NCBI RefSeq assembly: GCF_000392435.1 | Contig: NC_021219.1 | Location: 150,001 to 182,000, forward strand | Length of the DNA: 32,000 nt | Direction: 5' to 3' | Origin: Candidatus Saccharimonas aalborgensis | GTDB lineage: Bacteria; Patescibacteriota; Saccharimonadia; Saccharimonadales; Saccharimonadaceae | In this document: positions 5,648 to 27,027 of the stretch, one piece after another | How the letters are laid out: every line of letters begins with the position of its first letter | Numbering within the stretch: the first letter of the stretch is position 1 | Notes under the pieces: model-generated | Databases searched by the model: none | Seen by the model: only the letters and a program-made list of their open reading frames with translations | What the model was told of the DNA's origin: nothing | Program-made: the position numbers and the translations under genes

Positions 5648-5869
5648 GTGTTGTATAGTTATAGTATGCCACAAAGAAGTAAAAAAGAGCCGAAACTACT
5701 CACATTGAAACAGGCGTGTGAGATTTTGAATTGCCATCCAAACACGCTACGAGCTTGGGATGAAAAAGGCTACTTAGTTGCAGTACGTTTTGGCACACGT
5801 AGAGATAGACGATATAAACGAGAAGATGTGATGAAACTATTGGAAAAAAATGACAAAACAAAACACTGA
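5648..5869 (+). CDS. Excisionase/MerR-type HTH DNA-binding protein
   Basis: LTLKQACEILNCHPNTLRAWDEKGYLVAVRFGTRRDRRYKREDV is a typical HTH_17/excisionase-family helix-turn-helix. The likely start is Met at 5666. It diverges from the element operon. Confidence 0.7.
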   Translation: MLYSYSMPQRSKKEPKLLTLKQACEILNCHPNTLRAWDEKGYLVAVRFGTRRDRRYKREDVMKLLEKNDKTKH

Positions 5870-6524: not shown

Positions 6525-6526
6525 CT

Positions 6527-8054: not shown

Positions 8055-9007
8055 TGAAGAAGCTGAAAAAACTACTGACCAATCGGAACAACTACGTTGA
8101 TACCTCGCTGATAACGGCTCTGCAAAGCTGCTCCGATAAACCGCCCGTCAAGCTGATTGAACACTGCAATTCGCTCAACAATAGCTACAAGAAACAAAAC
8201 TACACAACTGTTGCCATTGTCATACGAGGGGTGCTGGATTACATACCGACCATTTTTGGTTTTGCCAATACTACTCAGGTTTACTCGGAATTACAGGGTA
8301 AACGAACATTCAAGGACGCATTGAAACAGCTTGACCAAGCCAGTCGTAACCTTGCAGATGATGGTTTGCACAGCCCAGCTCGTAAAGATGAAACACTTAA
8401 GGTCAGTAAGCTAACCGTTGATAACTTGCAAGGTAACCTTGCTATCGTGCTGAGCGAAACGGCTGCCCAGTTACGAACAAAGGATTTGCGTGACGATGGA
8501 AACGCCAAGTTAGACGAGCAAAGAGCCGTAAAACCCAAGCGACAAAAGTCGCAACTGGAAACCTTTGAGGATTATATTGTAAGTAAGCAGTGGACTGAGC
8601 AGGAGCTAGACGGCGATACGGTTTGGATTTGCGAAACGGATAATCTCTACCAGATACACAGCAAAGGCGATTATGACGAGTTTAGTGAACCGTGGACACA
8701 GGTTTACCCCGACAGCAGAGGCTCAGGCAAGCATAGTGTTGACCTTGTATATGCTGGCACAATCATCAAGCGATTTACGTTCATCTACTGTGACGGTGGT
8801 CGTATAAGTGTAGTTATGCCTGAGCTTTATATAGCACCTGAACACAGGTATCCACAGCGTAAGTTCAAAGAGGATGATAAAGACTATCGTGAGTACATCT
8901 GGGAAAAGGACAGCCTCAAGTTCAAGTTGATGATGCTCATCGGTAGCTTTTACATTTACAACACTCCAGAGGGAGTGGCTAAGCACTCAAATATACAGAT
9001 AAAATAG
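8051..9007 (+). CDS. Hypothetical protein
   Basis: A 318-aa ORF whose start overlaps the upstream stop (gtgATGa), implying translational coupling. I recognised no family. Confidence 0.6.
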   Translation: MMKKLKKLLTNRNNYVDTSLITALQSCSDKPPVKLIEHCNSLNNSYKKQNYTTVAIVIRGVLDYIPTIFGFANTTQVYSELQGKRTFKDALKQLDQASRNLADDGLHSPARKDETLKVSKLTVDNLQGNLAIVLSETAAQLRTKDLRDDGNAKLDEQRAVKPKRQKSQLETFEDYIVSKQWTEQELDGDTVWICETDNLYQIHSKGDYDEFSEPWTQVYPDSRGSGKHSVDLVYAGTIIKRFTFIYCDGGRISVVMPELYIAPEHRYPQRKFKEDDKDYREYIWEKDSLKFKLMMLIGSFYIYNTPEGVAKHSNIQIK

Positions 9008-9121
9008 CTATCCAAAAACGCTTGGTCATTCTGCCCCCATAAATTCGGCATTTACACTGCGGAGTGCTGTGTTGGCAGAATAAAGGGCGACTACCCCCCT
9101 ACCAACACGTCGTTTGCATAG

Positions 9122-9136
9122 TACCCCTAGGGGGTA
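9122..9136. promoter_or_regulatory. CsoR-type operator (GC-tract palindrome)
   Basis: tacccctagggggta is a near-perfect palindrome of the TACCC-n-GGGTA type described for CsoR-family operators. It lies 14 nt upstream of the repressor ATG and next to a tatata -10-like box. Confidence 0.6.
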
Positions 9137-9149
9137 TATAGTAAGAGGT

Positions 9150-9434
9150 ATGATAGGCGATATAAAGAAGCGAGCGTTACACCGAGCCAAGATACTTGAG
9201 GGGCAAATGCGAGGCGTTCAAAAGATGATTGAGAATGAAGACTACTGTATGGACATACTCACACAGAGCCTAGCCATTCAAAAGTCTATCGGTTCGCTCA
9301 ATAAGCTGATACTTGAAAATCACGTACGAACGCACATCAAAGAAAACCTAAGTTCCAATTCGGAAGATGAGCAAGAAAAAGCCATCGCTGAACTTCTATC
9401 ACTTTACGATCTGACGAATATCAGGGGTAAATAA
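9150..9434 (+). CDS. csoR: CsoR/RcnR/FrmR-family metal-sensing repressor
   Basis: HRAKILEGQMRGVQKMIENEDYCMDILTQSLAIQKSIGSLNKLILENHVRTHI matches RL.RIEGQ.rgi.rMie....C.DiL.Q..Av..Al......ll..Hl. The start is moved to ATG 9150 so that the operator is upstream. The track ORF starts at TTG 9114. Confidence 0.82.
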   Translation: MIGDIKKRALHRAKILEGQMRGVQKMIENEDYCMDILTQSLAIQKSIGSLNKLILENHVRTHIKENLSSNSEDEQEKAIAELLSLYDLTNIRGK

Positions 9435-9436
9435 AC

Positions 9437-9799
9437 GTGAAGTACCTAACAGCTATAAAAAACATTCTAGTTTTGTTAGCTGTATTGGTGCTCAACTCGG
9501 TTAGCCACGCATCTGCTATGTCGGCAATGCCCTCGCACGAGATGAGCGGTATGAACCACGGCTCAAGCGACGCAACTTCCTGTGCTACCCTTTGCCGCAC
9601 GGCAGTTATCAACAAGGAAGATAATGTCATCAACGATGACGAAAGCGAAGATGATACCGAACCAGCGATAGCTTTCTACGGACAGAGCCAAACACTATCA
9701 ACAGATGAAAAATCGCTTTCTCAACACCTTTATGCCGCAGAGATAAAGCCGCCGCCAAAGATACCGATTTATATTCTGTACGGTGTCTACCGAGTGTAG
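9437..9799 (+). CDS. Secreted Met/His-rich protein (possible periplasmic/cell-surface Cu binding)
   Basis: A signal-peptide-like N-terminus is followed by AMSAMPSHEMSGMNHG, a methionine-motif stretch like those in Cu(I)-binding proteins. The gene starts at GTG 2 nt after the repressor stop. Confidence 0.55.
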   Translation: MKYLTAIKNILVLLAVLVLNSVSHASAMSAMPSHEMSGMNHGSSDATSCATLCRTAVINKEDNVINDDESEDDTEPAIAFYGQSQTLSTDEKSLSQHLYAAEIKPPPKIPIYILYGVYRV

Positions 9800-9846
9800 G
9801 ATGCGATTGTTTACACAAATAGCATCAACTTAACTTTGGAGAAACT

Positions 9847-10548
9847 ATGAAAAATAACAGGAACAGTATAATCATCGTGGCGATAGTCGCAGTTGTAGCT
9901 ATCGCAGGTGTTAGTATTTACGCCATTAGCCGCAATGACAATATGATGGACGGCGATATGATGGGCAACTCAAACTCGCAATCGGCGGTTCAAGCTGATA
10001 CTAGCTCGGCAGACTATAAGCAGTACGCCGCACTCAAGGGCGAAGACTATGACAAGATGTTCCTTGCCAATATGATAGCCCATCATCAGGGTGCGGTTGA
10101 TATGGCAAACCTTGCTCTAACCAATGCCAGCCATCAAGAAGTGAAAGACTTAGCTAAAGCCATTGTGTCCGCTCAAACGACTGAGATTACCGATATGACT
10201 GCTTGGCAAAAGACGTGGGGCTATCCTGCAAGCAGTGGCGAAATGATGGAAGACCATAGCTCAATGGGTATGATGAACACAAACGCTGGAATGATGAACG
10301 AATTGAACGGCAAAACGGGCGAAGCGTTTGATAAGGCGTTCCTTGAGCAGATGATTATGCACCATCAGTCGGCTATAAATATGGCAGCAACAGGTAAAAC
10401 AAATGCTCAACACCAAGAAGTAAAAGACTTAACAGTTGCTATCGTTACAGCTCAGACCAAAGAAATAAAGCAAATGAAGCAGTGGCAAAAAGACTGGGGC
10501 TATTCTACTTCCAATACTACCAACTCAATGTCGGGAATGAGCCACTAA
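9847..10548 (+). CDS. DUF305-family protein (duplicated domain), membrane anchored
   Basis: Two copies of the DUF305 signature are present: FLANMIAHHQGAVDMA and FLEQMIMHHQSAINMA. Each is followed by HQEVKDL..AIV.AQ..EI..M..WQK.WGY. Confidence 0.85.
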   Translation: MKNNRNSIIIVAIVAVVAIAGVSIYAISRNDNMMDGDMMGNSNSQSAVQADTSSADYKQYAALKGEDYDKMFLANMIAHHQGAVDMANLALTNASHQEVKDLAKAIVSAQTTEITDMTAWQKTWGYPASSGEMMEDHSSMGMMNTNAGMMNELNGKTGEAFDKAFLEQMIMHHQSAINMAATGKTNAQHQEVKDLTVAIVTAQTKEIKQMKQWQKDWGYSTSNTTNSMSGMSH

Positions 10549-10549
10549 A

Positions 10550-12556
10550 ATGGAACACTCGCACCACGAACATTCTGAGCATCAAGACCACGACAAGCAC
10601 GCAGGACATTCAGTAGCAATGTTCAAGGACAAGTTCTGGCTGTCCTTGCTGCTAACGCTACCTGTACTTGCGTATTCCGAGATGATACAGCATTGGTTTA
10701 GCTTTACGCCGCCAACCTTTCCTGGCTCACAGTACGTGCCATTCGTATTCAGCACCATCATCTTTTTCTACGGCGGTCTAGTGTTTATAAAGAGTGCGTG
10801 GGGCGAGCTAAAAGCCAAATTGCCAGGTATGATGACGCTCATCAGCCTGGCAATTATCACGGCTTACGTGTATAGCGTAGCTACCCAATTCTTTATAAAG
10901 GGTGATGGTTTCTTTTGGGAACTAGCAACCTTAGTAACAATTATGCTGCTCGGTCATTGGCTAGAAATGGCATCGGTTGCCAAAGCTGAAAATGCCCTAG
11001 ATGCTATATCTAAACTGTTACCTGACAAAGCTGAGAAGCTAGTCAACGGTAAGCCAAAACAAGTATTGGTAAGTGAACTAAAAGTTGGCGACCTGGTATT
11101 GATACGTCCAGGTTCAAGCATCCCTGTTGACGGTGTGATTGTAGATGGTAGCTCGGCAGTTGATGAAGCGGCTATCACTGGCGAAAGTAAGCCAGTCAGT
11201 AAAACAACCAACGATGAAGTTATTGCTGGCACAGGCAATCAAGATGGTTCACTTACGGTAAAGGTTACGAAAATCGGTCAAGACACGGCACTTGCTGGAA
11301 TTATGCGACTTGTAGCCGAAGCACAAAGTTCAAAATCTAATGTACAGATACTTGCAGATAAAGCAGCCTTTTATCTGACCATCATTGCAATCGCTACTTC
11401 AATCGCTACGTTTATATTCTGGCTGATAGCTAAAGATGCTAGTTTCGCTTTAGAGCGGTCAGTTACGGTTCTGATTATAGCTTGCCCACACGCACTCGGT
11501 CTGGCAATACCACTTGTTGTGTCTATCTCTACTGCATTATCAGCGAAGAACGGTCTACTTGTCCGAAAACGTCTTGCTCTTGAAGCTGCTCGTAAGTTGG
11601 ACTGGGTACTCTTTGATAAGACTGGCACATTGACTAAAGGCGAACACGGCGTTACGGATGTGTGGGCTACAAAAGGTTATACAGAAGAAGATGTACTGCA
11701 CCTGACGGCTAGCCTTGAGCAGAACAGCGAGCATATTGTCGGTAAGGGTATTGTCAAAAAAGCCGAAGAACAACACGTCCATCTTGATAAAGTAGCCAAC
11801 TTCAAAGCGTTACCTGGCTTAGGCGTACAAGGTACTCTACACGGAAGCGAAGTGTATATCGCAGCAAGCTATCGCTACATAGAAGATAACAAGCTAATTG
11901 TTCCAACTGAAATAGCTAAGATGGTTAAGCAAGCAGCCAAAGAGGGAAAAACTGAGGTGTATCTAATTACCAATAAAAAGGTTGTTGGAGCATTGGGCTT
12001 AGCAGATATAGTGCGTGAACAATCTAAACAGACTATCGCAACACTCAAATCAATGGGTATAAAGACGGCAATGATAACAGGCGACTCAGATGAAGTTGCA
12101 GCTTATGTGTCAAAACAGCTTGGCTTAGACCAGTATTTTGCAGAGGTAAAACCAGAAGATAAGGCTGCTAAAGTCAAAGAGTTACAGAAAAACGGGCAGA
12201 AAGTTGCAATGGTCGGCGATGGTATCAATGACGCACCTGCACTTACTCAGGCAGATATTGGTATAGCTATTGGTGCTGGTACGGATGTAGCAATCAAGTC
12301 AGCAGATATTATACTGGTAAAAAGCGACCCTCAAGACGTGGTAAAGGTAATCAACCTATCAAAGGCTACCTATCGCAAGATGCTACAAAACCTCGGTTGG
12401 GCTACGGGTTATAACGTATTCGCAATTCCACTGGCAGCTGGCGTACTATATGGAGCAGGTATCGTTCTTGCTCCTGCTCTGGGAGCTGTACTTATGTCTG
12501 TTTCAACTGTTGTAGTAGCATTCAACGCTCAATTACTCAGACGTGCAAAACTGTAA
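10550..12556 (+). CDS. copB: Heavy-metal P1B-type ATPase, CopB-like (CPH motif, His-rich N-terminus)
   Basis: Motifs seen are MEHSHHEHSEHQDHDKHAGHS, the TM6 motif IIACPHALGLAIP, DKTGTLT, TGD and GDGINDAPAL. Confidence 0.92.
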   Translation: MEHSHHEHSEHQDHDKHAGHSVAMFKDKFWLSLLLTLPVLAYSEMIQHWFSFTPPTFPGSQYVPFVFSTIIFFYGGLVFIKSAWGELKAKLPGMMTLISLAIITAYVYSVATQFFIKGDGFFWELATLVTIMLLGHWLEMASVAKAENALDAISKLLPDKAEKLVNGKPKQVLVSELKVGDLVLIRPGSSIPVDGVIVDGSSAVDEAAITGESKPVSKTTNDEVIAGTGNQDGSLTVKVTKIGQDTALAGIMRLVAEAQSSKSNVQILADKAAFYLTIIAIATSIATFIFWLIAKDASFALERSVTVLIIACPHALGLAIPLVVSISTALSAKNGLLVRKRLALEAARKLDWVLFDKTGTLTKGEHGVTDVWATKGYTEEDVLHLTASLEQNSEHIVGKGIVKKAEEQHVHLDKVANFKALPGLGVQGTLHGSEVYIAASYRYIEDNKLIVPTEIAKMVKQAAKEGKTEVYLITNKKVVGALGLADIVREQSKQTIATLKSMGIKTAMITGDSDEVAAYVSKQLGLDQYFAEVKPEDKAAKVKELQKNGQKVAMVGDGINDAPALTQADIGIAIGAGTDVAIKSADIILVKSDPQDVVKVINLSKATYRKMLQNLGWATGYNVFAIPLAAGVLYGAGIVLAPALGAVLMSVSTVVVAFNAQLLRRAKL

Positions 12557-12563
12557 GCGTAGA

Positions 12564-12608
12564 TAGTTTGATAGCTAGCTGGCAAACTGCTAACCAGTTA
12601 TCAAACTA
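12564..12608. repeat. Inverted repeat/hairpin between convergent copB and recombinase 2
   Basis: tagtttgata (12564-12573) pairs with tatcaaacta (12599-12608). The spacer is 25 nt and contains a nested ctgg...ccag. There is no U tract. Confidence 0.5.
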
Positions 12609-12686
12609 CCTGACAGCTGGAATTGTTCAACGAGGTGTTTTAGCTTATAATCCTCTTGTGCATCAATAGCAGCTGTTTGAAATACG

Positions 12687-14255
12687 TCAACTATGCTGCA
12701 CCAAAGAAGACTTTTCAGTTACTGGAAGGTCTTTTTTATTTGACTGACCCCTGAAAATGGAGCTTATATTATGGGTGTAAACATTTTTGTTTTCGTCAAC
12801 GTATATTTTGCCTGTAAATAACAATTGTTTACACCGTTTCATATCCTCCCCTGATAACTCGAAGAAACGCCCACCCTTGTTACTAAGAAAGTTAAAGCTA
12901 AAGTCTAAGAACTCAGCTAGGTCTGTTTCGTGTTGTTCACTAAGCACAGCTATCTTATCTTCGTTCTCCGCAAACTCAGCTTTAAGCTTTTCTATTGAAG
13001 CCATTATTTCATCGCTAATCGAAACGAAAGAAGGGTTAGTAACTGCATCTGCTTTTTGAGCTATGCTTTGTTTTATATTGGCGTTAACAGCCTCAAGCCG
13101 TTGTATCTCGCTCTTAGCTTCGTGGTGCTTCGCGTTAAAGGTAGTGACTAGCTTAATCTTTAATTTTCTCATCTCAGCATTTGGCAGTATTACTGCATCT
13201 AGTAAATTGGAGAAGCTAGCGTGAGTTTCGTCTCGGTCTAAGAACCTGTTGCACTCTCTGCACTTATATTTGGCGTAGTAGCTAACTTTCTTTCTAGGCT
13301 TACCGTGGTTAGTCTTGCCGTTATTTAATGGTACGCTCGTGAAGCGTGGATATTTACGTTTTGCCGCTTCGCAAGATATACAGGTAAGTTCATTGCTCAA
13401 TGGGTATTTAGTATTTTTGTCTGGTCTATGACCTTGCTGTTTCTTAACGTTACGCTCAAAGACCCTAAGTATCTTTTCGTGCTCAGTACGGGTTATTAGT
13501 GGCTCGTGTAGACCGTGTTCATTACGTTCGTTAAACTTGCCCTTAAGGTCGATAATTCCTGCGTAATATGGCTCGCAAGCGATTATCCTAAACTTGTCCA
13601 TTTTAAGCTTTGCATAGCGTTTACCGAACTCAGTTTCTTGTAGTTCTTTTAAAGCGTCGGTTGGCGTTTTTAGATTTGAGGCAATCTGCCTTAAAGCTCT
13701 CTTGAGCGGTTCACCAGTAATTGGGTCTACGATATGAACACCAGCCATTGTACCTTTTTTGTAGCCTGCTTTTGGACCAGATGGCAAACGACCCTCTCTT
13801 ATTGCTTTTTTACCACCAGACACTGACTTACTTATGCGTTCTTCGTTACTACCCTCAGCTTGCAAGAACTTTGTGAATTTGAGTAATTTCGATGGTAAAT
13901 CATCCTTATTTAGCTCAGGGTTTGAAGCATACCAAACTCTCGTACCAGTTTCATAGAAAAGTTTAACTTCCCAAAAACCGCTTTCGTCAATTGACCGCAT
14001 AAACCTATCAGGCTCGTCTACGATAAGATACTTTACTCGCTTATTTTTCTTGGCAAAGTCGTATATCTCCAGCAGGTCTTTACGTTGTACGTTACTCCCA
14101 CGTTTACTAGATACGCTACCTGACCACCATTTAATAATTTCTACACCTAATTCTTTAGAGGCGTTAAATACAGCTTCGTGCTGACGATTTAGGCTATTGT
14201 TGTCAAGCTGCTCAGTCGACGATACACGACAAAGTGCTATAGCAAGGTCGCTCAT
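12687..14255 (-). CDS. Large serine recombinase/integrase (second copy, not a close paralog of the first)
   Basis: The N-terminus is AIALCRVSSTEQ with LIVDEPDRFMRS. A recombinase domain and a Zn-ribbon (CISCEAAKRKY...YKCRECNRF) follow, then a C-terminal coiled coil. A good RBS (gagg) lies 8 nt upstream. Confidence 0.88.
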   Translation of the reverse strand: MSDLAIALCRVSSTEQLDNNSLNRQHEAVFNASKELGVEIIKWWSGSVSSKRGSNVQRKDLLEIYDFAKKNKRVKYLIVDEPDRFMRSIDESGFWEVKLFYETGTRVWYASNPELNKDDLPSKLLKFTKFLQAEGSNEERISKSVSGGKKAIREGRLPSGPKAGYKKGTMAGVHIVDPITGEPLKRALRQIASNLKTPTDALKELQETEFGKRYAKLKMDKFRIIACEPYYAGIIDLKGKFNERNEHGLHEPLITRTEHEKILRVFERNVKKQQGHRPDKNTKYPLSNELTCISCEAAKRKYPRFTSVPLNNGKTNHGKPRKKVSYYAKYKCRECNRFLDRDETHASFSNLLDAVILPNAEMRKLKIKLVTTFNAKHHEAKSEIQRLEAVNANIKQSIAQKADAVTNPSFVSISDEIMASIEKLKAEFAENEDKIAVLSEQHETDLAEFLDFSFNFLSNKGGRFFELSGEDMKRCKQLLFTGKIYVDENKNVYTHNISSIFRGQSNKKDLPVTEKSSLVQHS

Positions 14256-14273
14256 CTTAACGCCTCAATAACA

Positions 14274-14326
14274 GTAGTTGGCGTCTCTCGGACAAGCTTG
14301 CGGAAAGCCAAAGAGACGCCAACTAC
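14274..14326. repeat. Perfect 15-bp inverted repeat immediately 5' of recombinase 2
   Basis: gtagttggcgtctct (14274-14288) pairs with agagacgccaactac (14312-14326). The 23-nt spacer contains aagctt. On the minus strand it sits 13 nt after the small ORF stop and 19 nt before the recombinase ATG. Confidence 0.8.
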
Positions 14327-14339
14327 CAATATCAAAATG

Positions 14340-14516
14340 TCATTTAGTGTCTTCCTCATTTTCCGCAATTTGTCCTTTATCTAACTCTATTTTAGCACCG
14401 ATATTATCCCTTGAATGTTGGTAGGCGTCATAAAGAAAACTAGCTAGCTCATCAAGTAGCTCATCGCTACCTACCACTGATGGGCTACAACCTGCACTAG
14501 TTTCCTTTGACGCCAT
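14340..14516 (-). CDS. Small acidic hypothetical protein (58 aa), below the ORF-track cutoff
   Basis: My own translation gives MASKETSAGCSPSVVGSDELLDELASFLYDAYQHSRDNIGAKIELDKGQIAENEEDTK. It lies between the 167-aa gene and recombinase 2 on the same strand. The RBS is weak. Confidence 0.3.
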   Translation of the reverse strand: MASKETSAGCSPSVVGSDELLDELASFLYDAYQHSRDNIGAKIELDKGQIAENEEDTK

Positions 14517-14565
14517 ACCCTAAAGGTAGAATATGGTTATATTTTTGTCGTAAATCCCGTAGTGT

Positions 14566-15069
14566 TTATTTGCGTTTTTTAGCTTTTAACAGAGTGTTGT
14601 GCTGGTCGCGGCATTTGACCAAATATTCTTGTATTTCATCGTCTCTAACTCCAAAATCTACAGCTCGACTACGCCTAATGACCGTATGGGCGACTAGGGT
14701 GGTCTCATTGTCTCCTGCATCAAAAATAGCGTTGCTTAGTTTTTCGGGTAGCCCCGTATTGCTTATTAGCATACTCGTTCTAGCTGGTTTGGCTACTTTA
14801 ATAGTCTTTACCCAGCCCTTTTGTTTAAATAGCTTCTCAAAGTAAATATCGTTAGGTTTGCCTAGCTGGAACTGTTTTACTACAAAACCGTTTAGTTTTA
14901 GTTGGCGTTTGTTCGGGTTATAGCTAAGCCAGTATGCCGTGTCGTTAGGTCTGCGTTGAGGTGGTATGACACCATAGCTCAGTAAATGTTTAAACTTATC
15001 TGGTGGGTTTAATTCCAATTCCAGTTTTAAATCATCATCCTCTGAGTTCTTTTTTTGCAAGCTTGCCAT
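14566..15069 (-). CDS. Hypothetical protein (167 aa), basic C-terminus
   Basis: ORF diverging from the helicase gene. I recognised no family. Confidence 0.55.
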   Translation of the reverse strand: MASLQKKNSEDDDLKLELELNPPDKFKHLLSYGVIPPQRRPNDTAYWLSYNPNKRQLKLNGFVVKQFQLGKPNDIYFEKLFKQKGWVKTIKVAKPARTSMLISNTGLPEKLSNAIFDAGDNETTLVAHTVIRRSRAVDFGVRDDEIQEYLVKCRDQHNTLLKAKKRK

Positions 15070-15122
15070 AAAGTAATTATAGCTCGAAACTCGACAAGAT
15101 ACCCCAGTCTTACATCGCTAAC

Positions 15123-18100
15123 TTGGCTGAACTGTTGTATAATTTGGTTAGAAATCGAACATTTTTTCAACTTATGACAAAAATACCTGTAACCATCAGT
15201 CAACTAGCAAAATACGGACTTGATTATGTAAGCCTTATATCGAGCAGTGCCTCGAGAAGTAGACCGATAAAAACAGAACCTATGGACGCCAGCCTAGTGT
15301 CCATCCCCGACTTAATTTTCAAAAGCGAAGTCGATACGATAACTATTAACCTCGTTACTTCGTTAGATAGTCAATATGACCCGAACCTGCCAAGTGAAGA
15401 TAAGACAGATGAACAGCTACAAGCTGAGCATCGCGTTATCCGTGACAGGGCCATCTTTGATAAAATCCAAGAAATAGACACAAAGATAAAGACTGACGAA
15501 TACACGAAGCGGGTCGTACTGCAGACGGGCTTTATATCCTTTGAAGGTAAGCGATACAAAGAAACAGAGTTCGGTGAAGAGTATGAGAACTACGAAGCTC
15601 CGTTATTGCAAATTCCAATTGCTGCCATCAACTTCAAATATACGAGTGACGGGGCTAATGTAGTCATTGAACTTCCTGACAGCTATGTAGAAGTATTGAG
15701 TGGTCCACTAAAAAACTATTTACCGCAACAATACTACGATAACGTCTTTAAGTTTGTTGCCGATGCGGAGGCCGAAGGAAAAACTAGCCTACCAATCGGT
15801 AGTGATTTTATTGAAGATTTGTGGTCCGCAATTAGAGTACAGCTTGATAGAGTGGATGCTAGGTCTATTTCTGAAGCACCGAGCTTCGATACAAGTATAG
15901 TTGCGATTACAAATAAGACTAACCACTTCTTAGCAGAAGACCTTAAGGCGATTGCTGCTTTAGAAGATGAAGACCTGATTGAGACTTCCTTGGGAAGCTG
16001 GGTGTCTGACGAAGATATGGCGATAGAACAGGCTGTGTCCGATGATGGCAGTACAGAGATATTCTTTCCATTTGATTATGACAAATACCAACTAAAAGTT
16101 TTGGGCATTACAGCAAATAAGGCAGTCATAGTCGAAGGCCCTCCTGGTACTGGTAAATCTCAAACCATTTCAAACCTACTAGTTCATCTAGCAGCTACGG
16201 GTAAAAGAGTATTATTCGCTAGCCAAAAGGACCAGGCGATACGTGGCGTAAAGGACAAGCTAAAAACTCTTGATGTACCATTTCTTTACGGCTATATACC
16301 TGATAAAACATCTAAGTTGTATACAGCAGATGATGAAAAAGACAGTGCTGCGAATACTCTCATAGCTTTAAACAGAGAATTCCAGAAAGGTAAGGTCGGT
16401 GACTTAAAAGAGCCTCTTGAGTTACTGTCTGACCGTTCAAAGATTTTTGTAGAGAATATGAACATTGAACGTTCGCTCTACTCATTATATGAAGAGCGTC
16501 GAAGCCTTAGCTACCTAGACCCTTATTATAATTACGGAATAGACCTAGAATTCTATGAACAATGTTTAGATTTTGAAAATAGTATAGCTAACCTCGAGGC
16601 TACGATTAAACAATTCGAGAACGTACATAGCAAGTTTATAAAAACTGCTGACACCAAATTCAAAGACCTTGAAATAGACTATCAAGAAACAATATCTTCG
16701 ATTGAGAACATAAACAACTATTTTAAAACCCATATGCCAGAAAGGTCTGGTTTCTTTGCAAGTAAAGTTAATGACCTCAAGCTTCGTAGTGCATTAAAAG
16801 AACACTGCAAAAACATCCTTCAAGAAATATACCTAGAATTTGAAAAGGTGTTGTTTTCAGATAATACAAAGTCAGCAAAACTGAAATTATTAGATGGCCT
16901 AAAAGCATATTTTGTATATTCAAGCGACAACCAGGTATTGGCGTATAACCGTGCGGAACTCGACGGATTACTTCAAAGTAAAGATATGCCTCATACCGCC
17001 CTTGCAAGCCTAAAGAAGCTGGTAAGTGAACACGGTGGATATAAGAAGGTATTTGAAGACCTCGAAAGGTACAACGAGATTTCTGCCCAAATAGACGAAG
17101 CGTCATTATACTCAGCAAATGAGCTAAACCGAGAAATCAAAGATATACGAAAGTTCTACAGAAAAAACATTACGAACTATGTTCGCAATCGAATACTAAC
17201 AAGGGTTGGTGAGGCCAATAACAGCAAAGAGCTGAGAGCGACATTGGCACAAGTTGCTAGAAGTCTTTCAAAGAGTAAGAAAGCAAATAAAACGTTCGAC
17301 AGGCTCAAGCATAACGAAGATAACTTTAGTGCTATGTCAAAAGTTCTACCTATCTGGATGATGAGTTTAGACGACGTGAGCCGTATTGTTCCTTTGGAAA
17401 TGAACGCGTTCGATTACGTGATTATTGACGAAGCATCCCAGTGTAATTTTGCTTATGCGTTCCCAGCTATGTACCGTGCAGAGCATACTATTTTCTTCGG
17501 CGATACTTTACAAATGCGTGACGACAATATTATGTTCAAGTCTAATGACCAACTTAATGCCATAGCAAAGAAGCATAAAATTCCTGATGTTTATCAGATT
17601 AAAGCGGAAGAAGACACCGTTAAATCAGTAATGGACATCGCCAATCTAAATGGTTTTAAGACGACTACTTTAAAGTATCACTATCGTTCCCCTAAAGAGC
17701 TTATAGGCTTCTCAAATGAGGCCTATTACGAGCCTATTGGCCGTAAGCTTGAAGCAGTTAATGATAACATTGTGCCTTATAAAGACACTGGTCGTGTATT
17801 GCTTAATCATTTGGTAACTCCAAATGATAATGAAGAGATTGGCAGTAGGACCAACTTTGCGGAGATACACAAAATTCAACAGTTGGTAGAAGAAATAAAA
17901 ATCGACCCAATTTTGAAAGACAAGTCTATAGCCATATTGACCTTCTTTAACGAGCAAGCCGAAGAAATACGTAAAGCTATTACGGATGAAGACATCAAAG
18001 TTTCGATTATTGACGGTATCCAGGGAGATGAACGCGACATCGTAATTTACTCATTTGTTATTAAAGACCCAAGCGACAAGCGACGCTATATCGCGTTGAC

Positions 18101-19046
18101 TGGTGAAGGTGGTGAGATACGTAAAGATATAGCTGCTGGTCGTGTGAATGTTGCATTTAGCCGTGCCCGACTTCAGGTCCATTGTGTGACTTCTCTTGCC
18201 ACAGAGCTTTGGCCTGAGGGTATTTGGATTAAGAAGTACCTAGAGTATGTTGATAAGAACGGAGCAATATCTAGAAGGCATAGTAAATCCGAGCAGCGTT
18301 TCGATTCGCACTTCGAGGAGCAGGTTTTTAGCTACCTATCAAAGCAGCTTGATGCAAATGAGTTTACGCTCGAAACACAAGCAGGTTCACTCGGGTTTAA
18401 AATTGACCTAGTCGTTCACCATAATGGTAGGAAACTTGCTATTGAGTGTGATGGTCCGACCCACTTTGAGGGAGGAGACGGTCAAGTTTACGTACAGAAC
18501 GACTGGGAGCGTCAAGGGGCATTAGAAGTAGCAGGATGGACCTTCTATCGTATTTCTTACTTCGATTGGGTCGACGACCAAGCAGAGGAAGAGAAAGCCC
18601 TACTACTACATATAGGTGAGTATTTTAATGATGAGCATAATTCAGGTAAGACAAGTGTTGTTAAAGAGCTAGAGAAAGAAACGGTTGCACCTGAGGATGC
18701 CCCGAAAGATACGTATGTAACAGATTTTTCTGACGAACGCGTCGATAATGAAAGTCCCGTTAACGCAACGCCTGCACCACGTGCAACAAAGACTAAGGCT
18801 AAGACTTCGACAAAGAAAGAATTTAGTGTCGGTGACCGTGGTGTTGACCAAGATGTTTTTGAAAGTTATCTACAAGCAAGAGTTAGAGGAACAATAAACA
18901 TAAGATACCAAAGCACTCGCCCTGGCAGCGGGAACTATTGGCGTAATGTAAGCCTAATCAAATACGATGGCACATATCTTTATTCCGAAGGGTCGGGTAC
19001 TTACCCAATCCGATACCGTCGTGACCGCGTCTTAGAATTCAAATAA
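15123..19046 (+). CDS. DUF4011-type SF1 (Upf1/DNA2-like) helicase fused to a DUF559/Vsr-like nuclease; HheA-like defence protein
   Basis: Helicase motifs are Walker A GPPGTGKSQTISNLL, DEASQ, YRSPKELIGFSN, QGDERDIVIYS and NVAFSRAR. The C-terminal KIDLVVHHNGRKLAIECDGPTHF...WERQGALEVAGWTFYRISYFDW matches the DUF559 PD-(D/E)xK pattern. A K/T/P-rich linker and a small terminal domain follow. The probable start is ATG 15174; the track start at 15123 is TTG. Confidence 0.88.
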   Translation: MAELLYNLVRNRTFFQLMTKIPVTISQLAKYGLDYVSLISSSASRSRPIKTEPMDASLVSIPDLIFKSEVDTITINLVTSLDSQYDPNLPSEDKTDEQLQAEHRVIRDRAIFDKIQEIDTKIKTDEYTKRVVLQTGFISFEGKRYKETEFGEEYENYEAPLLQIPIAAINFKYTSDGANVVIELPDSYVEVLSGPLKNYLPQQYYDNVFKFVADAEAEGKTSLPIGSDFIEDLWSAIRVQLDRVDARSISEAPSFDTSIVAITNKTNHFLAEDLKAIAALEDEDLIETSLGSWVSDEDMAIEQAVSDDGSTEIFFPFDYDKYQLKVLGITANKAVIVEGPPGTGKSQTISNLLVHLAATGKRVLFASQKDQAIRGVKDKLKTLDVPFLYGYIPDKTSKLYTADDEKDSAANTLIALNREFQKGKVGDLKEPLELLSDRSKIFVENMNIERSLYSLYEERRSLSYLDPYYNYGIDLEFYEQCLDFENSIANLEATIKQFENVHSKFIKTADTKFKDLEIDYQETISSIENINNYFKTHMPERSGFFASKVNDLKLRSALKEHCKNILQEIYLEFEKVLFSDNTKSAKLKLLDGLKAYFVYSSDNQVLAYNRAELDGLLQSKDMPHTALASLKKLVSEHGGYKKVFEDLERYNEISAQIDEASLYSANELNREIKDIRKFYRKNITNYVRNRILTRVGEANNSKELRATLAQVARSLSKSKKANKTFDRLKHNEDNFSAMSKVLPIWMMSLDDVSRIVPLEMNAFDYVIIDEASQCNFAYAFPAMYRAEHTIFFGDTLQMRDDNIMFKSNDQLNAIAKKHKIPDVYQIKAEEDTVKSVMDIANLNGFKTTTLKYHYRSPKELIGFSNEAYYEPIGRKLEAVNDNIVPYKDTGRVLLNHLVTPNDNEEIGSRTNFAEIHKIQQLVEEIKIDPILKDKSIAILTFFNEQAEEIRKAITDEDIKVSIIDGIQGDERDIVIYSFVIKDPSDKRRYIALTGEGGEIRKDIAAGRVNVAFSRARLQVHCVTSLATELWPEGIWIKKYLEYVDKNGAISRRHSKSEQRFDSHFEEQVFSYLSKQLDANEFTLETQAGSLGFKIDLVVHHNGRKLAIECDGPTHFEGGDGQVYVQNDWERQGALEVAGWTFYRISYFDWVDDQAEEEKALLLHIGEYFNDEHNSGKTSVVKELEKETVAPEDAPKDTYVTDFSDERVDNESPVNATPAPRATKTKAKTSTKKEFSVGDRGVDQDVFESYLQARVRGTINIRYQSTRPGSGNYWRNVSLIKYDGTYLYSEGSGTYPIRYRRDRVLEFK

Positions 19047-20841: not shown

Positions 20842-21009
20842 TCAAATTAGGCTATCTTCAACGATGTAAGTCTTGCTCGGTAGTAGCATACTCTTATACT
20901 GGGCATAAGGTACGGCTAAAATATCACGCCATCTTTGTATTTCTAACCTCAGTTCCGCATAGCTATCCGCGATAGTTTGGTGTAAAAGCTTTTGGTCCTC
21001 GTGCACCAT
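20842..21009 (-). CDS. Possible small protein (55 aa); the long 119-aa version is rejected
   Basis: MVHEDQKLLHQTIADSYAELRLEIQRWRDILAVPYAQYKSM... lies 14 nt upstream of the membrane protein gene. Residues upstream of this Met are encoded by repeat B1 and are unlikely to be coding. Confidence 0.3.
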   Translation of the reverse strand: MVHEDQKLLHQTIADSYAELRLEIQRWRDILAVPYAQYKSMLLPSKTYIVEDSLI

Positions 21010-21142
21010 AGAAGACACCGCCTCAATGGCGGTATTTTCTATGGCTGTACACAGTTTCCACTTTGTGGGGCCAGGCCACTTGCTTTGTTTATTCAGGCAA
21101 ATTGGTAGAATATTAACACTTCTTAGGGGTGAACTCCATATC
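21004..21142 (+). repeat. Repeat family B, copy 1 (17-bp hairpin plus about 100-nt conserved tail)
   Basis: It is about 88% identical by eye to 26890-27027. It opens with the hairpin ccatagaagacaccgcc-tcaat-ggcggtattttctatgg (21006-21044). It also contains tggtagaat, an extended -10-like box facing the beta-helix gene. Confidence 0.85.
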
Positions 21143-22404: not shown

Positions 22405-22552
22405 CCCCTCCTAACTTAAATGACCGTCCTGGTGCAACCAACCTAGAAAGACTAGATTGTCCAAGACGGCCATTAAAGCCCGCGACAAATAAAAATAGTC
22501 TTTCGCTGGATGGTTGCTCTTTTATTATACTGCAGATCGACGCAAGGCTGCG

Positions 22553-22577
22553 AAAAAAAGCATGTCTTTAGACATGC
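22553..22577 (-). terminator. Intrinsic terminator on the minus strand
   Basis: Read on the minus strand it is GCAUGUC-UAAA-GACAUGC followed by UUUUUUU. The stem is a perfect 7 bp. Confidence 0.7.
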
Positions 22578-22592
22578 CGAACCGCAGCTCTT

Positions 22593-22868
22593 CCCCCAGA
22601 AAAACAGATGGGTTTTGCTCCGCAAAACCATACTTTCCCAAACAAAAACGGGCGTTTCGCGCCCGGATTTGCGGATTTGTCCAAATTTGGTGGAGTTTTA
22701 CAACCAAGTTCGAACCGAATTCGAGCAAAATGGCCGAAGCGCAGCCCCAACACCTGCGGGCACGCTGCGCCCGCTCGCCCCACCAGAAAAACCCTTTGGT
22801 TATTTTTTTGAGATTTCCCCCCGCCGAATTTCTTTTGTTGTTGTAAGGGGTGTTTTCTGGTGGTGGCG
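22593..22868 (-). repeat. Repeat family A, element L (MITE-like; inverted relative to element R)
   Basis: 22812-22868 is the reverse complement of 25163-25218, about 54/57 by eye with one 1-nt indel. The core tggtggagttttacaaccaagttcgaaccgaattcgagc (22688-22726) matches inverted 25296-25337 and 26857-26894. The ends carry ccagaaaaac / gtttttctgg-type terminal inverted repeats. Confidence 0.85.
22641..22664 (-). terminator. Intrinsic terminator on the minus strand, inside repeat element L
   Basis: Read on the minus strand it is GGGCG-CGAAA-CGCCC followed by GUUUUUGUUU. Confidence 0.65.
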
Positions 22869-22904
22869 CGTTACATATGCTCGGTGTAGTACAATAGATC
22901 AGAG

Positions 22905-23762
22905 ATGAACTGGGAAGTATTTGTCGTTATCAACCTAATCACCGCTTCGTTGCTCGTACCATTGCAACGTCTTTTATTGCGCCGAGAAGAAACTGATCCG
23001 TTGACTTTTATTGTTGTGTCACAGGTTATTACCGGTGCCCTACTTATACCATTCACGCTTGCACATGGCTTTGAGTTCCCCGACATTAATAAATATGGCC
23101 TGCTAATGATTACAATGTTTGGGCTTTACAGTATCGGACATTATCTCTATGCGCACACGCTCAAGCGTGTCGAAGCTTCTGTATTCTCAACGTTGCTCAA
23201 CACGAGCACAATTTGGGTAATTGCAATGGGTTATCTTGTATTGCACGAAGAGTTGCATCTCTCGGATATTGTTGGGACGGTTATCATCATGACAAGTGTG
23301 TTTATGCTCATGGAGCGTAAAAAGAAACATAGGCTACACCTTGAAAAATCTATTCTCATGGGATTGCTTGTCGGATTAATATTCGGTGTCGCTTTGTCAA
23401 TGTGGGTATACATAGGCAAAGGCTCGGACTTATTGTCATGGATAACAATTAGCTTCTTCGGAACGCCCCTTATTATGCTTGCCGTGAAACCAAAGGTAGC
23501 ACGAAAAGCAAGGCACTTTTTCTCTGGTGAGTTGCTACCTAGAATGTTAATACTTGCTGTTGTATGGGCGGTTGATAATCTTGCCTCACTGGCTGCATAT
23601 CAGCATGGTAACGTCAGTATTATTGCACCGTTGCTGCAAACAAGCGCAATCTTAAGCGTACTCGTTGCGATTATATTCTTAGGGGAAAGAACTCGGTTAC
23701 GCTGGAAAATTGCTGCATCTGTTGTTTGTTTTATCGGCGTTGTACTGATTATTAGTTTCTAA
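22905..23762 (+). CDS. EamA/DMT-superfamily transporter (10 TM)
   Basis: Two EamA-like halves are present. The C-terminal half is typical: SIIAPLLQTSAILSVLVAIIFLGERTRLRWKIAASVVCFIGVVLI. Confidence 0.8.
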   Translation: MNWEVFVVINLITASLLVPLQRLLLRREETDPLTFIVVSQVITGALLIPFTLAHGFEFPDINKYGLLMITMFGLYSIGHYLYAHTLKRVEASVFSTLLNTSTIWVIAMGYLVLHEELHLSDIVGTVIIMTSVFMLMERKKKHRLHLEKSILMGLLVGLIFGVALSMWVYIGKGSDLLSWITISFFGTPLIMLAVKPKVARKARHFFSGELLPRMLILAVVWAVDNLASLAAYQHGNVSIIAPLLQTSAILSVLVAIIFLGERTRLRWKIAASVVCFIGVVLIISF

Positions 23763-23798
23763 CAAATAATCCGGTGAAGCAATGACAGCCCTAGTTCG

Positions 23799-23807
23799 TG
23801 ATATAAT
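23799..23807 (+). promoter_or_regulatory. Extended -10 promoter candidate (TGaTATAAT)
   Basis: tgatataat sits in the intergenic region after the DMT stop, facing the retron leader. An atgaca -35-like hexamer is only 14 nt away, so activity would rely on the extended -10. Confidence 0.35.
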
Positions 23808-24006
23808 ATACATGGGACTGCTTAGGCAGTCGGTACGTTTTTATCATTTTCTGCTCGCTCGAGGTGTTGTGACATGGCAACTATGCCATAAATAGTCCCC
23901 CTTTAATGTGATTCTTGTAATGCGTTAATGTGTGGCTATTACGCCCGGCTTCGCCGGCGCGAGACCTACCGGTTACGGAGCTTGTCTTTGTACCGATACG
24001 TTTCTA

Positions 24007-24263
24007 GAGGCCAAAGTACGTTGTATGACCTTTTCTGGACAGTGCGGAAAGCGAGACCCCGCGTATGCGTGGAGAAAGGAAATGTGATGAACTTACAGCG
24101 TACTAAATATAAACGTACGACTCCAAAGTCTCTTACTGAATACTCATCAACGAGCATCAGTCTGGGCGATGGCTTCAAGCTACTGGTTCAAACCATAGTG
24201 AAAATCATCGAAAAGTACTTTGGTCTCCTCTATGTTTCTATCTATTAGGTAGGCGCATACGGG
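24007..24263 (+). ncRNA. Candidate retron msr-msd non-coding RNA (boundaries tentative)
   Basis: There are nested long-range inverted repeats just upstream of the RT. Option 1: gaggccaaagtac (24007-19) pairs with gtactttggtctc (24215-27), 12 WC plus 1 GU, followed by G24020. Option 2: cgtatgcg (24062-69) pairs with cgcatacg (24254-61), followed by GG 24071-72. Option 2 encloses a small hairpin (cgtac..gtacg) and a 109-nt imperfect hairpin (24119-24227). Confidence 0.45.
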
Positions 24264-24268
24264 AGAAT

Positions 24269-25129
24269 ATGGGGAACACGGAGGAACTAGAAAAATTATT
24301 AGCAGACTACCCCGCCGAGGCGAGAGTTTTTTGTGCATTAGAACCAAAACGCGACGGTACGTCGCGTCCTATTATCAAGCCAAATAAGCCGCTCAATCAG
24401 TGGCTCAAGCGTATGAAACGCGCTTTGTATCGACAACGTAGAGACTGGCCGACGTTTATTCACGGCGGAGTGAAAAAGCGAAGTTATGTATCATTCGCTC
24501 GCCCTCACGCCAACAAGAACACCGTCATTACTATTGACATAAAAGACTGTTTTGGCTCCATAACACAAAGCGAGGTGCAACAAGCCCTCGTCAGTAAACT
24601 CGGCTTACCGGACGGCCTTGCCTCTCGGCTTGCAGCAAAATTGTGCTACAAACGCCGCATACCACAGGGTTTTGCAACAAGTAGCTATCTGACCAATCTA
24701 TATCTCAACGACACACTACTGAAAATCAACCGCCAACTTAAGCGCAAACAAATTGACATGACTGTGTACGTCGATGATATTGCGCTGTCGGGACAAAAAG
24801 TTGATAGTGCGGTGATTATCAACCTAGTCACGCTTGAGCTATCTCGCGCGCGGTTAGCAATAAGCAAGGCTAAGGTGAAAGTTATGCGCTCTCATAGTCC
24901 GCAAATTATTTGTGGACTTGTTGTCAATAAAGGCGTAGCCCTTTCGCGACAAAAACGGAAAGAAATTTTTTCAGATATAGCCAACGGACGTATGAGCGAG
25001 ACAAGTTTACAGGGCTGGCTAGCGAACTTAAATATGATAGACAGACGGCTTATGAATAAGTTGCAAACATACGCTACACAAAAAGGCCTGGTGGTAGTGA
25101 GCGCGAAGCGCGGCGGTCTTGCCGCCTAG
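24269..25129 (+). CDS. Retron-type reverse transcriptase (286 aa, no fused effector domain)
   Basis: It is colinear with the Ec86 RT as I recall that sequence. KRDGTSRPIIKPNKPL aligns with KKGPEKRMRTIYQPSREL. HGGVKKRSYVSFARPHANKNTVITIDIKDCFGSI aligns with the NAxxH...DLxDFFPS block. LCYKRRIPQGFATSSYLTNLYL aligns with ICCYKNLLPQGAPSSPKLANL. TVYVDDIALSG aligns with YTRYADDLTLS. PQIICGLVVNKG aligns with RKVTGLVIS. LQGWLANLNMID aligns with VRGWLSFILSVD. Confidence 0.9.
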   Translation: MGNTEELEKLLADYPAEARVFCALEPKRDGTSRPIIKPNKPLNQWLKRMKRALYRQRRDWPTFIHGGVKKRSYVSFARPHANKNTVITIDIKDCFGSITQSEVQQALVSKLGLPDGLASRLAAKLCYKRRIPQGFATSSYLTNLYLNDTLLKINRQLKRKQIDMTVYVDDIALSGQKVDSAVIINLVTLELSRARLAISKAKVKVMRSHSPQIICGLVVNKGVALSRQKRKEIFSDIANGRMSETSLQGWLANLNMIDRRLMNKLQTYATQKGLVVVSAKRGGLAA

Positions 25130-25162
25130 GCGAAGCCTCAACACCTCTACTGCTTGCAGTAG

Positions 25163-25465
25163 TCGCCACCACCAGAAAACACCCTTTACAACAACAAAAG
25201 AAATTCGGCGGGGGAAATCCAAAAAATGCAAAAGGCAGGGCTGGCGGGACGGGCTTGCGTTTCTCGCAAGCAATCGGCGGGGTTTGTTCACGCATTTCGC
25301 TCAAAATGGGTTCGAGCTTGGTTGTAAAAATACACCAAATCAGGACAAAATTGCAAATTCGGGCGGAAGTTTGCGCTCCGCCCCAGCCAGAAAAACCTTT
25401 GATTGTTTCTTTTTATAATTTCCCTTGCCGTGTTTTTTGGAAACTGAAAAGGGTGTTTTGGTTTG
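25163..25465 (+). repeat. Repeat family A, element R (MITE-like)
   Basis: It has an inverted M module (25163-25225), the conserved core (25296-25337), a GC hairpin gggcgga..tccgccc (25360-25382) and a direct M module (25383-25465). Its ends ccaccagaaaacaccctttac and gaaaagggtgttttggtttg form terminal inverted repeats. Confidence 0.85.
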
Positions 25466-25569
25466 TCGGTTCTACCTTATGGCAAAAAGGAGTTGTAAAG
25501 AGTACAATTTAAATATAACCCTAAACCAAATCTCTGTTTGGCATGGTTTATAAATCCACAAAGAGAAAC

Positions 25570-25656
25570 AGCTCGTCACGGGTACTTCTTTTTGTGTTCG
25601 CGTGGGGAAACCCGCGCGGGTGGTCGCAAGGCTGCCGCTCGTGGCGAGCTTTTTGG
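25570..25656 (+). other. Structured leader/terminator-like element upstream of the 2TM gene
   Basis: An 11-bp closing stem pairs agctcgtcacg (25570-80) with cgtggcgagct (25640-50), followed by tttt. It encloses the hairpin gcgtggg-GAAA-cccgcgc (25600-25617), which has a GNRA loop. Confidence 0.45.
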
Positions 25657-26810: not shown

Positions 26811-26894
26811 GTTTAGGCGGTGGCTTTGTCGCCTAGGGCGGAGCTTAGCCACTCCGCTCGTAATCGGTTCGAACTTGGTTGTAAAACTCCACCA
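26811..26894 (+). repeat. Repeat family A, partial third copy (core only), fused to repeat B2
   Basis: ctcgtaatcggttcgaacttggttgtaaaactccacca (26857-26894) matches the reverse complement of the L core nearly perfectly and also matches the R core. It is preceded by the GC hairpin gcggag-cttagcca-ctccgc. Confidence 0.8.
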
Positions 26895-27027
26895 TAGAAA
26901 ACACCGCCTCAATGGCGGTATTTTCTATGGTAGTACACAAGTTTCCAGTTTCTGGGACCAAGCCCCTTGCTTTGTTTATTCAGGCAAATTGGTAAAACTA
27001 ACGCTTCTTAGGGGTGAACACCATACA
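26890..27027 (+). repeat. Repeat family B, copy 2
   Basis: It is a direct repeat of 21004-21142. The hairpin ccatagaaaacaccgcc-tcaat-ggcggtattttctatgg is at 26892-26930. Confidence 0.85.

Follow-up and report, generated by a model that had tools for sequence, protein, structure and literature searches.

The described systems closest to the locus reported here are the integrative elements and prophages that depend on large serine recombinases (LSRs), such as those of the phiC31, Bxb1 and A118 type, and islands linked to tRNA genes. They share with its element family an enzyme composed of Resolvase, Recombinase and zinc-ribbon domains, a location at the 3' end of tRNA genes, hybrid joints resembling attL and attR, and the short direct core CACCA at both ends. 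Our locus lies in a 32,000-nt stretch of Candidatus Saccharimonas aalborgensis (NCBI RefSeq assembly GCF_000392435.1, contig NC_021219.1, positions 150,001 to 182,000), hereafter the window, in which two inverted elements, L (22593-22868) and R (25163-25465), flank a DMT transporter gene and the reverse transcriptase (RT) gene of a retron. L and R are likely to be the cargo-bay inverted-repeat arms of a degenerate member of a tRNA-linked family of LSR elements in Saccharibacteria. In contrast to known LSR integrative elements, this family has two classes of near-perfect inverted repeats of 105-320 bp, an internal inverted attP-like joint and a framed cargo bay, and unlike LSR prophages and islands it carries no phage or conjugation genes and has no matches in viral contigs.

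Other systems resemble the family in part. The staphylococcal and enterococcal cassette chromosomes (SCCmec) with their Ccr serine recombinases are variable-cargo cassettes at the 3' end of one conserved gene that show tandem accretion and recombinase decay, as here, but their target is rlmH and not tRNA genes, their ends are short direct and inverted repeats and not perfect frames of 100-300 bp, and their hosts are unrelated organisms. Islands that target tRNA genes are usually driven by tyrosine integrases (PMC4383910). The tycheposons of Prochlorococcus are likewise tRNA-linked and cargo-carrying and supply flexible genes to a streamlined genome without conjugation (bioRxiv 10.1101/2020.12.28.424599). 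Their recombinases and backbones are other than those of the elements studied here. We know of no report of paired inverted-repeat frames in tycheposons. Integron cassettes are similar in that imperfect palindromes with covarying arms (attC) delimit exchangeable passengers; integrons, however, use a tyrosine recombinase, folded single strands and direct sites, whereas the cassettes here are framed by inverted sites, and attC has conserved termini and a variable middle, whereas the palindrome described below has a conserved centre and variable arms. No tyrosine recombinase was found near the window locus, which is thus not classed as an integron. An architecture with paired frames at a tRNA gene has no description in the searchable literature, which is incomplete, so that a prior description is possible; the architecture of this LSR element family is apparently undescribed, and is a variant of serine-recombinase integrative elements.

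Modules of L and R and related recombinase elements

L and R were recovered as inverted repeats by repeat search and gapped local alignment in the positions that a first-pass annotation of the window had given them. The repeat search returned two pairs of arms (22660-22732 with 25293-25365, 73 nt, 82%; 22806-22868 with 25164-25226, 63 nt, 90%), which the gapped local alignment merged into 209 nt at 74.6% (E=2e-35), and the near-identical segment of 57 bp reported earlier was confirmed, its sharpest stretch being 22818-22868 against 25164-25214 with 50 of 51 positions identical. Each element is made up of four ordered modules, namely X with its terminator hairpins, a 31-nt M-core ending in CACCA, the GC hairpin S3 and the 84-bp quasi-palindrome P; R carries P, S3 and M in reverse order, beyond which come a truncated X and another P-like module that is degenerate (Table 1). 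The spacings between L and the DMT start (37 bp) and between the RT stop and R (34 bp) had also been given correctly. The bracketing of the two genes, described as exact, fails at R, since conserved element backbone (the T module of Table 1) runs about 65 nt inward and overlaps the final RT codons. Nor are L and R the sole pair, as a third M-core copy and a 137-bp direct repeat accompany them; copies of the L/R type number three to four in the window, all inside 6 kb.

A scan with the M-core pattern found 18 stretches in GTDB species representatives, nearly all of them Candidatus Saccharibacteria, and 18 further stretches in metagenome contigs; such related genome and metagenome contigs bear locus labels (L001, L015 etc.) that are distinct from the window elements L and R. 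These loci keep the whole order X-M-S3-P and not the core alone, the modules being 65-87% alike between species while the two arms within one genome are nearly identical. The 5' end of an LSR gene lies 155-321 nt from the M-core on the X side, in divergent orientation, in 14 of 51 M-core copies, and many of the remaining copies are cut by contig ends. None of the M-core loci has an RT or DMT homologue, and since the LSR recurs beside M-cores while these homologues do not, the elements are tied to the recombinase and not to the retron. A phage origin was rejected, as the M-core had no match in 2.9 million viral contigs and eight viral matches to the P centre lacked the module architecture.

The layout of intact relatives is tRNA CACCA, X, LSR, inverted X, M-S3-P, cargo, P-S3-M CACCA and host DNA, the repeats that frame the cargo in such relatives measuring 156-320 bp. 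Two classes of repeats are paired in it. Class A consists of X copies of 105-147 bp, 98.6-100% identical, inverted around the LSR in 11 independent loci (L001, L015, L016, L018, L021, L026, L055, L061, L062, L075/76 and L077). Its outer copy starts in the last 5 nt (CACCA) of the tRNA in nine of the ten loci with an intact tRNA, and in the last 8 nt in the other, and the tRNAs at these joints are Leu-taa, Leu-caa, Val-gac, Gly-gcc, Glu-ttc, Arg-ccg and Arg-tcg. Class B (M-S3-P; 98-319 bp, 97-100% identical) is inverted around 0.8-5.7 kb of cargo in 10 loci (L015, L021, L023, L026, L027, L052, L059, L062, L075 and L077), and the TGGTG of the M-core, where the classes overlap, belongs to both. 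In intact members the LSR gene runs with its 3' end back across X and into the tRNA. There are three joints, all consisting of a tRNA or M arm, CACCA and the next sequence: tRNA/X, M/X (inverted, intact) and M/host DNA. The joints read like attL (tRNA/X), an internal inverted attP-like site (M/X) and attR (M/host). The tRNA and the M-core face each other without an LSR in L024, L028, L059 and L066, and L024 looks like a deletion derivative.

An LSR gene is present in the sister assembly L001 (562 aa, with Resolvase, Recombinase and Zn-ribbon domains) and in at least 15 related loci; sizes in the family are 520-560 aa, and solved structures match the catalytic domain only. At E<=1e-60 the family numbers at least 7,764 proteins. 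Many of these come from contigs about 1.9-2.5 kb long, a length to be anticipated where assembly stops at the repeats around the 1.7-kb gene. A check free of ascertainment bias was made with four LSR homologues selected solely for sitting on long contigs. All four abut a tRNA with X repeats, near-perfect in two and about 80% identical in two, and near-perfect cargo frames were present in two of the four, with M-cores that differ from the search pattern.

At the window locus the LSR gene of the element is absent and the 188-bp leader alone persists, indicating that the locus is a remnant and not a complete member. The leader is about 65-70% similar to L001 8140-8340, and no LSR coding sequence adjoins it, a beta-helix gene having its stop at 22404. 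The X module of L is 75-92% homologous to sequence that follows real tRNA 3' ends and that flanks the LSR as a near-perfect inverted repeat elsewhere, and the M-core sits where the tRNA 3' end would be at the junctions. Joints in the window are of the M/X type in both L and R and of the form M/other at 26894. We propose that the LSR would place the element at tRNA 3' ends, and that the M-core may serve as a recombinase-binding arm mimicking the tRNA end, its sequence but not its structure being conserved; a protein-binding arm fits because 21 columns of the M-core are invariant among 16 lineages, without a consensus fold. In the window, the LSR gene has been deleted and the arms have become chimeric, with the DMT gene and a type-VI-like retron as current passengers. 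Unless some related LSR serves it in trans, the cassette can probably no longer move.

Table 1. Positions of element modules and passenger genes in the window.
Feature	Position	Strand	Description
137-bp direct repeat, left copy	21004-21140	+	right copy 26890-27025; 89% identical
LSR leader / first-codon remnant of deleted gene	22405-22592	-	188 bp; 79-86% identical to sequence upstream of LSR genes in L055, L065 and L063
X module of L	22593-22685	-	two hairpins with T-runs; terminator-like sites 22665-22649 and 22629-22611
M-core of L	22686-22716	+	31 nt; reverse complement ends ...CCACCAAA
S3 of L	22717-22779	.	GC-rich hairpin between M and P in all relatives; stem sequence lineage-specific
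P module of L	22780-22863	.	84-bp quasi-palindrome with covarying arms and conserved centre TTTCCCCCGCCGAATTTCTTTT; arm score 15
Inner (cargo-side) arm of L	22818-22868	.	98% to reverse complement of 25164-25214; 100% to L001
DMT/EamA transporter	22905-23762	+	Pfam EamA 1.2e-21; passenger
Retron unit	23799-25087	+	leader of about 470 nt and most of the RT open reading frame (full frame 24269-25129); passenger
T module, hairpin-containing backbone inside R	25101-25165	-	86.6% to L016, L021 and L058; 94% to L060
P module of R, inverted, chimeric	25169-25252	.	L-type inner arm and outer arm of other type
S3 + M-core of R	25253-25339	+	reads towards ...ACACCAAA; M-core 25309-25339, 90% identical to that of L
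Truncated X after CACCA of R	25340-25383	+	start AATCAGGACAAAATTGCAAAT matches X following tRNA-Gly in L015, L024 and L025
Second degenerate P-like module of R	25384-25465	.	oriented as P of L; 70.7% over 82 nt to 22776-22856
Third S3/M-core copy	26836-26894	+	ends CCACCA, joined to other downstream sequence; 60 nt at 85% identity to L, in inverse orientation to it

The first-pass annotation had compared L and R with miniature inverted-repeat transposable elements (MITEs) or the arms of a composite transposon, which are alike in being short non-coding units with inverted termini placed in inverted orientation around genes. L and R would then be non-autonomous copies or insertion-sequence arms, and a DDE-type transposase encoded elsewhere would move the DMT gene and retron. 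Terminal inverted repeats are indeed present, since the arms of the P module of L pair and the whole of L begins CCCCCAGAAAAAC and finishes GTTTTCTGGTGG; the termini of the 84-bp module are inverted, L and R stand in inverse orientation on the two sides of the gene pair, and extra partial copies lie close by in the window. This explanation is nonetheless highly improbable. No target-site duplication was found at 22592/25466 or at the inner edges, where the 15-17 nt compared on the outer and inner sides of the two elements contain no direct match of at least 4 nt. No transposase open reading frame (ORF) lies between L and R, an interval that holds only the DMT gene, a small ORF and the RT gene (ORF list and Pfam), and none was found in or near the elements, L and R themselves having neither a credible ORF nor a Pfam transposase match. 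The exact M-core scan gave one to three copies per contig, and the four modules stand in a fixed order beside an LSR at tRNA genes. An autonomous transposon with the same termini was not found, the sole recurrent neighbour being the serine recombinase, flanked by X modules and not by P termini. Moreover, the discontinuities described below fall at the centre of the palindrome and not at its termini, and the DMT and RT pair was not found elsewhere.

Serine-invertase switches (Hin, Gin, PinQ; PMC12529663) also combine a serine recombinase with an adjacent segment framed by inverted repeats, but their enzymes are small and act at sites of about 26 bp with an enhancer, whereas the present family has LSRs of 520-560 aa, repeats of 100-300 bp and a cassette observed in one orientation only. 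At one and the same tRNA-Val, L026 (1352-5119) and L074 (7000-10746) carry LSR modules in opposite orientation that are 98.8% identical and have different far flanks, the two loci sharing 2 kb of 100%-identical chromosome around the tRNA. A simple flip of the LSR module between them was rejected, as the differing far flank and 1.2% divergence point to separate elements. If L and R were inversion sites at which the recombinase flips its own gene and cargo, in the manner of a phase-variation switch, this would agree with the serine recombinase directly adjoining segments in near-perfect inverted repeats, with its module standing in both orientations at one tRNA-Val in otherwise identical chromosome, and with arms that are near-perfect within genomes against 65-87% between species, which suggests frequent interaction of copies. 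We regard such a switch as distinctly unlikely, because the window cassette has one orientation in all assemblies, LSR orientations with respect to the tRNA stand at 11 to 1 (both being possible for the module), and the L074 module, 98.8% and not 100% identical and with another far flank, is a separate insertion. In addition, the frames are symmetric, so a flip leaves promoter-gene relations unchanged, and the window L and R are just 75% alike with the recombinase gone.

Conservation of the P module and structure of the arms

The quasi-palindromic module of about 85 bp that had been ascribed to both elements holds for L, where the arms pair and 8 of 15 arm pairs have compensatory double changes across 13 lineages around a nearly invariant centre. 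It is weaker in the second module of R, and it does not hold for the first, whose arms are mismatched (arm score 5 against 10-24 in intact copies). The covariation would fit a hairpin as well as a symmetric binding site. L and R might be cis-acting RNA or transcription elements that insulate the passengers from read-through by terminators, a long hairpin and perhaps a small CCA-ended RNA gene, their repetition being a by-product of element history. The 6.2-kb region holds 19 terminator-like sites against 7.6 expected, three or four minus-strand hairpins of this kind lie in L, the P arms covary like a helix in which G.U exceeds C.A 12 to 5 on the cargo-ward strand, and M ends in CCA followed by terminators, as in a small RNA gene. 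On the other hand, L and R gave no Rfam match even at E<=5 and no tRNA with ARAGORN, and RNAalifold gave no consensus fold for S3 and M, which rules out a tRNA-like or known RNA; M is conserved as sequence, and the arm identity of 97-100%, the CACCA joints at tRNA ends and the chimeric arms would be left unexplained. We consider the cis-acting explanation unlikely; for the X and P modules it is compatible with the interpretation as LSR-element arms, in which the X hairpins and the P palindrome may insulate or terminate transcription.

A LOOT RNA (Rfam RF03000, 63 bits, E=8e-10) is located at 25518-25636, directly right of R and upstream of a 232-aa ORF. It was considered as a component of the element, but it is present only in the window and in none of the 38 related loci scanned, and is therefore placed outside the element family.

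Identity between the two elements is 98% in the inner 51 nt and 68% in the remaining, outer part of approximately 150 nt. The outer part of L is nearer to L014 and L061 (86.5%) than to R, and the outer part of R is nearest to L015 and L063; the outer P arm of R, CCGCCAGCCCTGCC, resembles the type of L012, L027 and L077, and a half-module similar to the second one of R follows the distal M-core of L027. Matches to the T module in L016, L021, L058 and L060 all adjoin P modules. Uniform decay of a once-perfect repeat was rejected, both because of the abrupt change in identity at the P centre, from 98% to 68%, and because the outer part of L is closer to copies of other species than to R. From 22818 rightwards the window agrees at 99.3% with the sister assemblies L001 and CP064959.1. 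Between L and L001 the inner arm matches at 100% and the outer at 68%; 22817 is the last mismatched position, and 22821/22822 the P centre. Left of 22818, these assemblies carry another backbone that includes tRNA-Cys, tRNA-Leu-taa and an intact LSR as well as an X-M-S3 and an outer P arm of their own. The same step between inner and outer part (95% and 72%) is seen between L019 and the L016 lineage. Given the identity steps at the P centre, the cargo and inner P arms have been joined to at least three backbones via the approximately 20-nt P centre, and the breaks there imply that the cassette and its inner half-modules together act as a unit open to exchange. Judging from these alignments, L and R are both chimeric, with parts from different lineages that meet at the P centre, and the cargo with the inner halves of both P modules may have been exchanged between backbones by crossover within it. 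The earlier proposal of a delimited, exchangeable cassette is thus upheld as regards mobile-element DNA that frames a species-variable slot with breaks at the P centre, but not as regards a functional unit of DMT and retron.

A locus of the window type is also found in the complete genome CP065015.1, and exact-protein look-ups of the RT, the DMT transporter and the left-flank gene, made for alternative contexts at strain level, recovered no types other than those of the window and of L001. At 22442, exactly 38 bp past the stop of the beta-helix gene, five short-read contigs of different samples end, and one short-read DMT contig starts at 22804, inside the P module. These breaks suggest assembly-graph branch points, that is, unsampled variants at the LSR leader and the P module. 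The short-read contigs L009 and L010 break at the third M-core copy and inside the M-core of L. The 137-bp direct repeats enclose 5.9 kb including L, the cassette and R; each stands after ...CACCA and opens with a terminator hairpin, and they look like a further pair of tRNA-end-type joints.

Passengers and surrounding island

The cargo differs in every locus, and the retron is one passenger among many. The frames of relatives hold a ribonucleotide reductase gene with its own adenosylcobalamin (AdoCbl) riboswitch (L059), a class-I aminoacyl-tRNA synthetase with a NUDIX/EPSP-like protein and a hydrolase (L062), a PEP-utilising enzyme and a phosphatase (L051), queuosine salvage (L026), an Imm5-like protein and a weak GIY-YIG match (L015), a methyltransferase and an HD protein (L021), an AraC regulator and a glyoxalase (L027), a collagen-like protein (L066), an HD protein with peptidase S51, an rve-type insertion sequence and a nucleoside deoxyribosyltransferase (L075), and a PNK3P/HAD protein with an unrelated EamA transporter (L077), the latter merely 23% identical to the DMT transporter of the window. 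In L059 (2055-6567), the reductase gene and its AdoCbl-II riboswitch lie in inverted repeats of 319 bp and 99.4% identity directly after tRNA-Leu(gag); this locus has no recombinase, and just an 18-nt palindrome separates the tRNA end from the M-core.

The window RT belongs to the retron clade by its matches to PADLOC RT_VI (3.1e-49, the best among defence systems) and Pfam RVT_1 (2.8e-18). Homologues at 58-76% identity occur in L069, L070, L071 and L073, with DNA homology of 65-79% that spans leader and RT from 23785/23799 to 25087 and in L073 ends within the RT at about 24560, so the leader of about 470 nt is kept with the RT in four other loci. These four retron loci have neither an adjacent DMT gene nor repeats of the L/R type, which speaks against the first-pass view of the DMT-retron pair as a mobile unit; the DMT transporter as a retron effector, or a DMT-RT unit, was likewise rejected, as the RT homologues stand in four other contexts without it. 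Type VI retrons have an adjacent non-coding RNA template, a small-protein toxin and a helix-turn-helix (HTH) partner, as reported in bioRxiv 10.64898/2026.04.27.721009. A small ORF of 53 aa (24087-24248) just upstream of the window RT is conserved (about 70%) in L071, whose RT is 63% identical, and it may be the small-protein toxin reported for type VI retrons. Pfam identified no HTH gene in the window cassette, although in L069 and L070 the gene after the RT is of the HTH_19/SocA_Panacea kind. In L069 (4579-6840), an oral-type Saccharibacteria contig, the homologous retron comes right after a cluster of three tRNAs, one more location linked to tRNA genes, and is followed by the HTH_19/SocA_Panacea gene, without repeat modules.

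The window RT ORF is 7 aa longer than most homologues, and its last approximately 14 codons (25088-25129) lie in element backbone and not in retron DNA, suggesting that the retron was captured with its 3' end truncated. The backbone at the RT 3' end (25101-25165) is common to L016, L021, L058 and L060.

An island of about 26 kb seems to start at a tRNA-Gly of the window, since core genes lie beyond it in the sister assemblies L080 and L081. This tRNA-Gly(gcc) (647-722) has an exact 28-nt copy of its 5' part at 465-492, 178 bp upstream, and a large serine recombinase of a second family (546-2207), 24% identical to the L001 enzyme, runs antisense through it. The island also contains metal-handling genes at 5850-12556 (two cation-efflux proteins and a P-type ATPase). 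At 12687-19046 it encodes a third protein with a Resolvase domain (12687-14255) and, after it, a helicase of 1307 aa that carries an MTES_1575 nuclease domain, and an Mrr-like protein. The genes from 5850 to 19046 look like stacked elements.

Weight of the evidence and meaning for Saccharibacteria

Several points weigh against L and R being arms of an LSR element. Equivalent joints should make both LSR orientations common, yet the tally is 11 to 1, and the internal inverted attP-like joint is without a known role. L016 and L021 are 99.93% identical over 4.4 kb and diverge inside the body of tRNA-Leu, about 20 nt before CACCA and within a degenerate tRNA-like copy that L016 has there; because they split inside the tRNA body, the LSR crossover point may lie elsewhere than at CACCA. 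The P module, with 84 bp and arms 27-42 nt from the centre, exceeds known LSR att sites, and the crossovers at its centre could be ordinary short-homology recombination. For the window cassette an empty site, an excised circle or inverted cargo was not found, and more than 20 assemblies and contigs from independent samples share one order and orientation of DMT and RT relative to both flanks. The two genome types differ on one side (L) only, and a predicted deletion between two nearby direct P modules failed to explain this difference: where a tRNA-Leu-LSR unit was expected, some 4.7 kb beyond the left edge of the window, core genes are found instead, left of tRNA-Gly, and hence the two types differ by a larger rearrangement or replacement. 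Finally, some frames hold genes of housekeeping type, such as those for ribonucleotide reductase and aminoacyl-tRNA synthetase, which are unusual as mobile cargo.

A bolder interpretation is that the P modules are dedicated sites for site-specific cassette exchange, and that the family is an LSR-driven gene-capture platform, functionally integron-like and mechanistically unrelated, which feeds flexible genes, among them retrons and other defence systems, into the reduced genomes of Saccharibacteria and of ultra-small bacteria related to them. In that case the inverted attP-like regions, being paired, would form part of an undescribed LSR integration mechanism. We hold this to be doubtful, though conceivable.

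The findings concern an abundant recombinase family (at least 7,764 close homologues) with a regular, recognisable architecture at tRNA genes and a framed slot whose accessory genes vary from lineage to lineage, in the window a transporter and a retron defence module. If the interpretation is correct, it would yield a rule for the automatic detection of cargo in metagenomes, as well as natural pairs of serine integrases and attachment sites aimed at tRNA genes, of possible interest to genome engineers. Saccharibacteria and other ultra-small bacteria have genomes of about 1 Mb and few recognised routes of exchange, yet many horizontally acquired genes (PMC12455944). For these organisms, the element family would be a concrete vehicle for the turnover of flexible genes.

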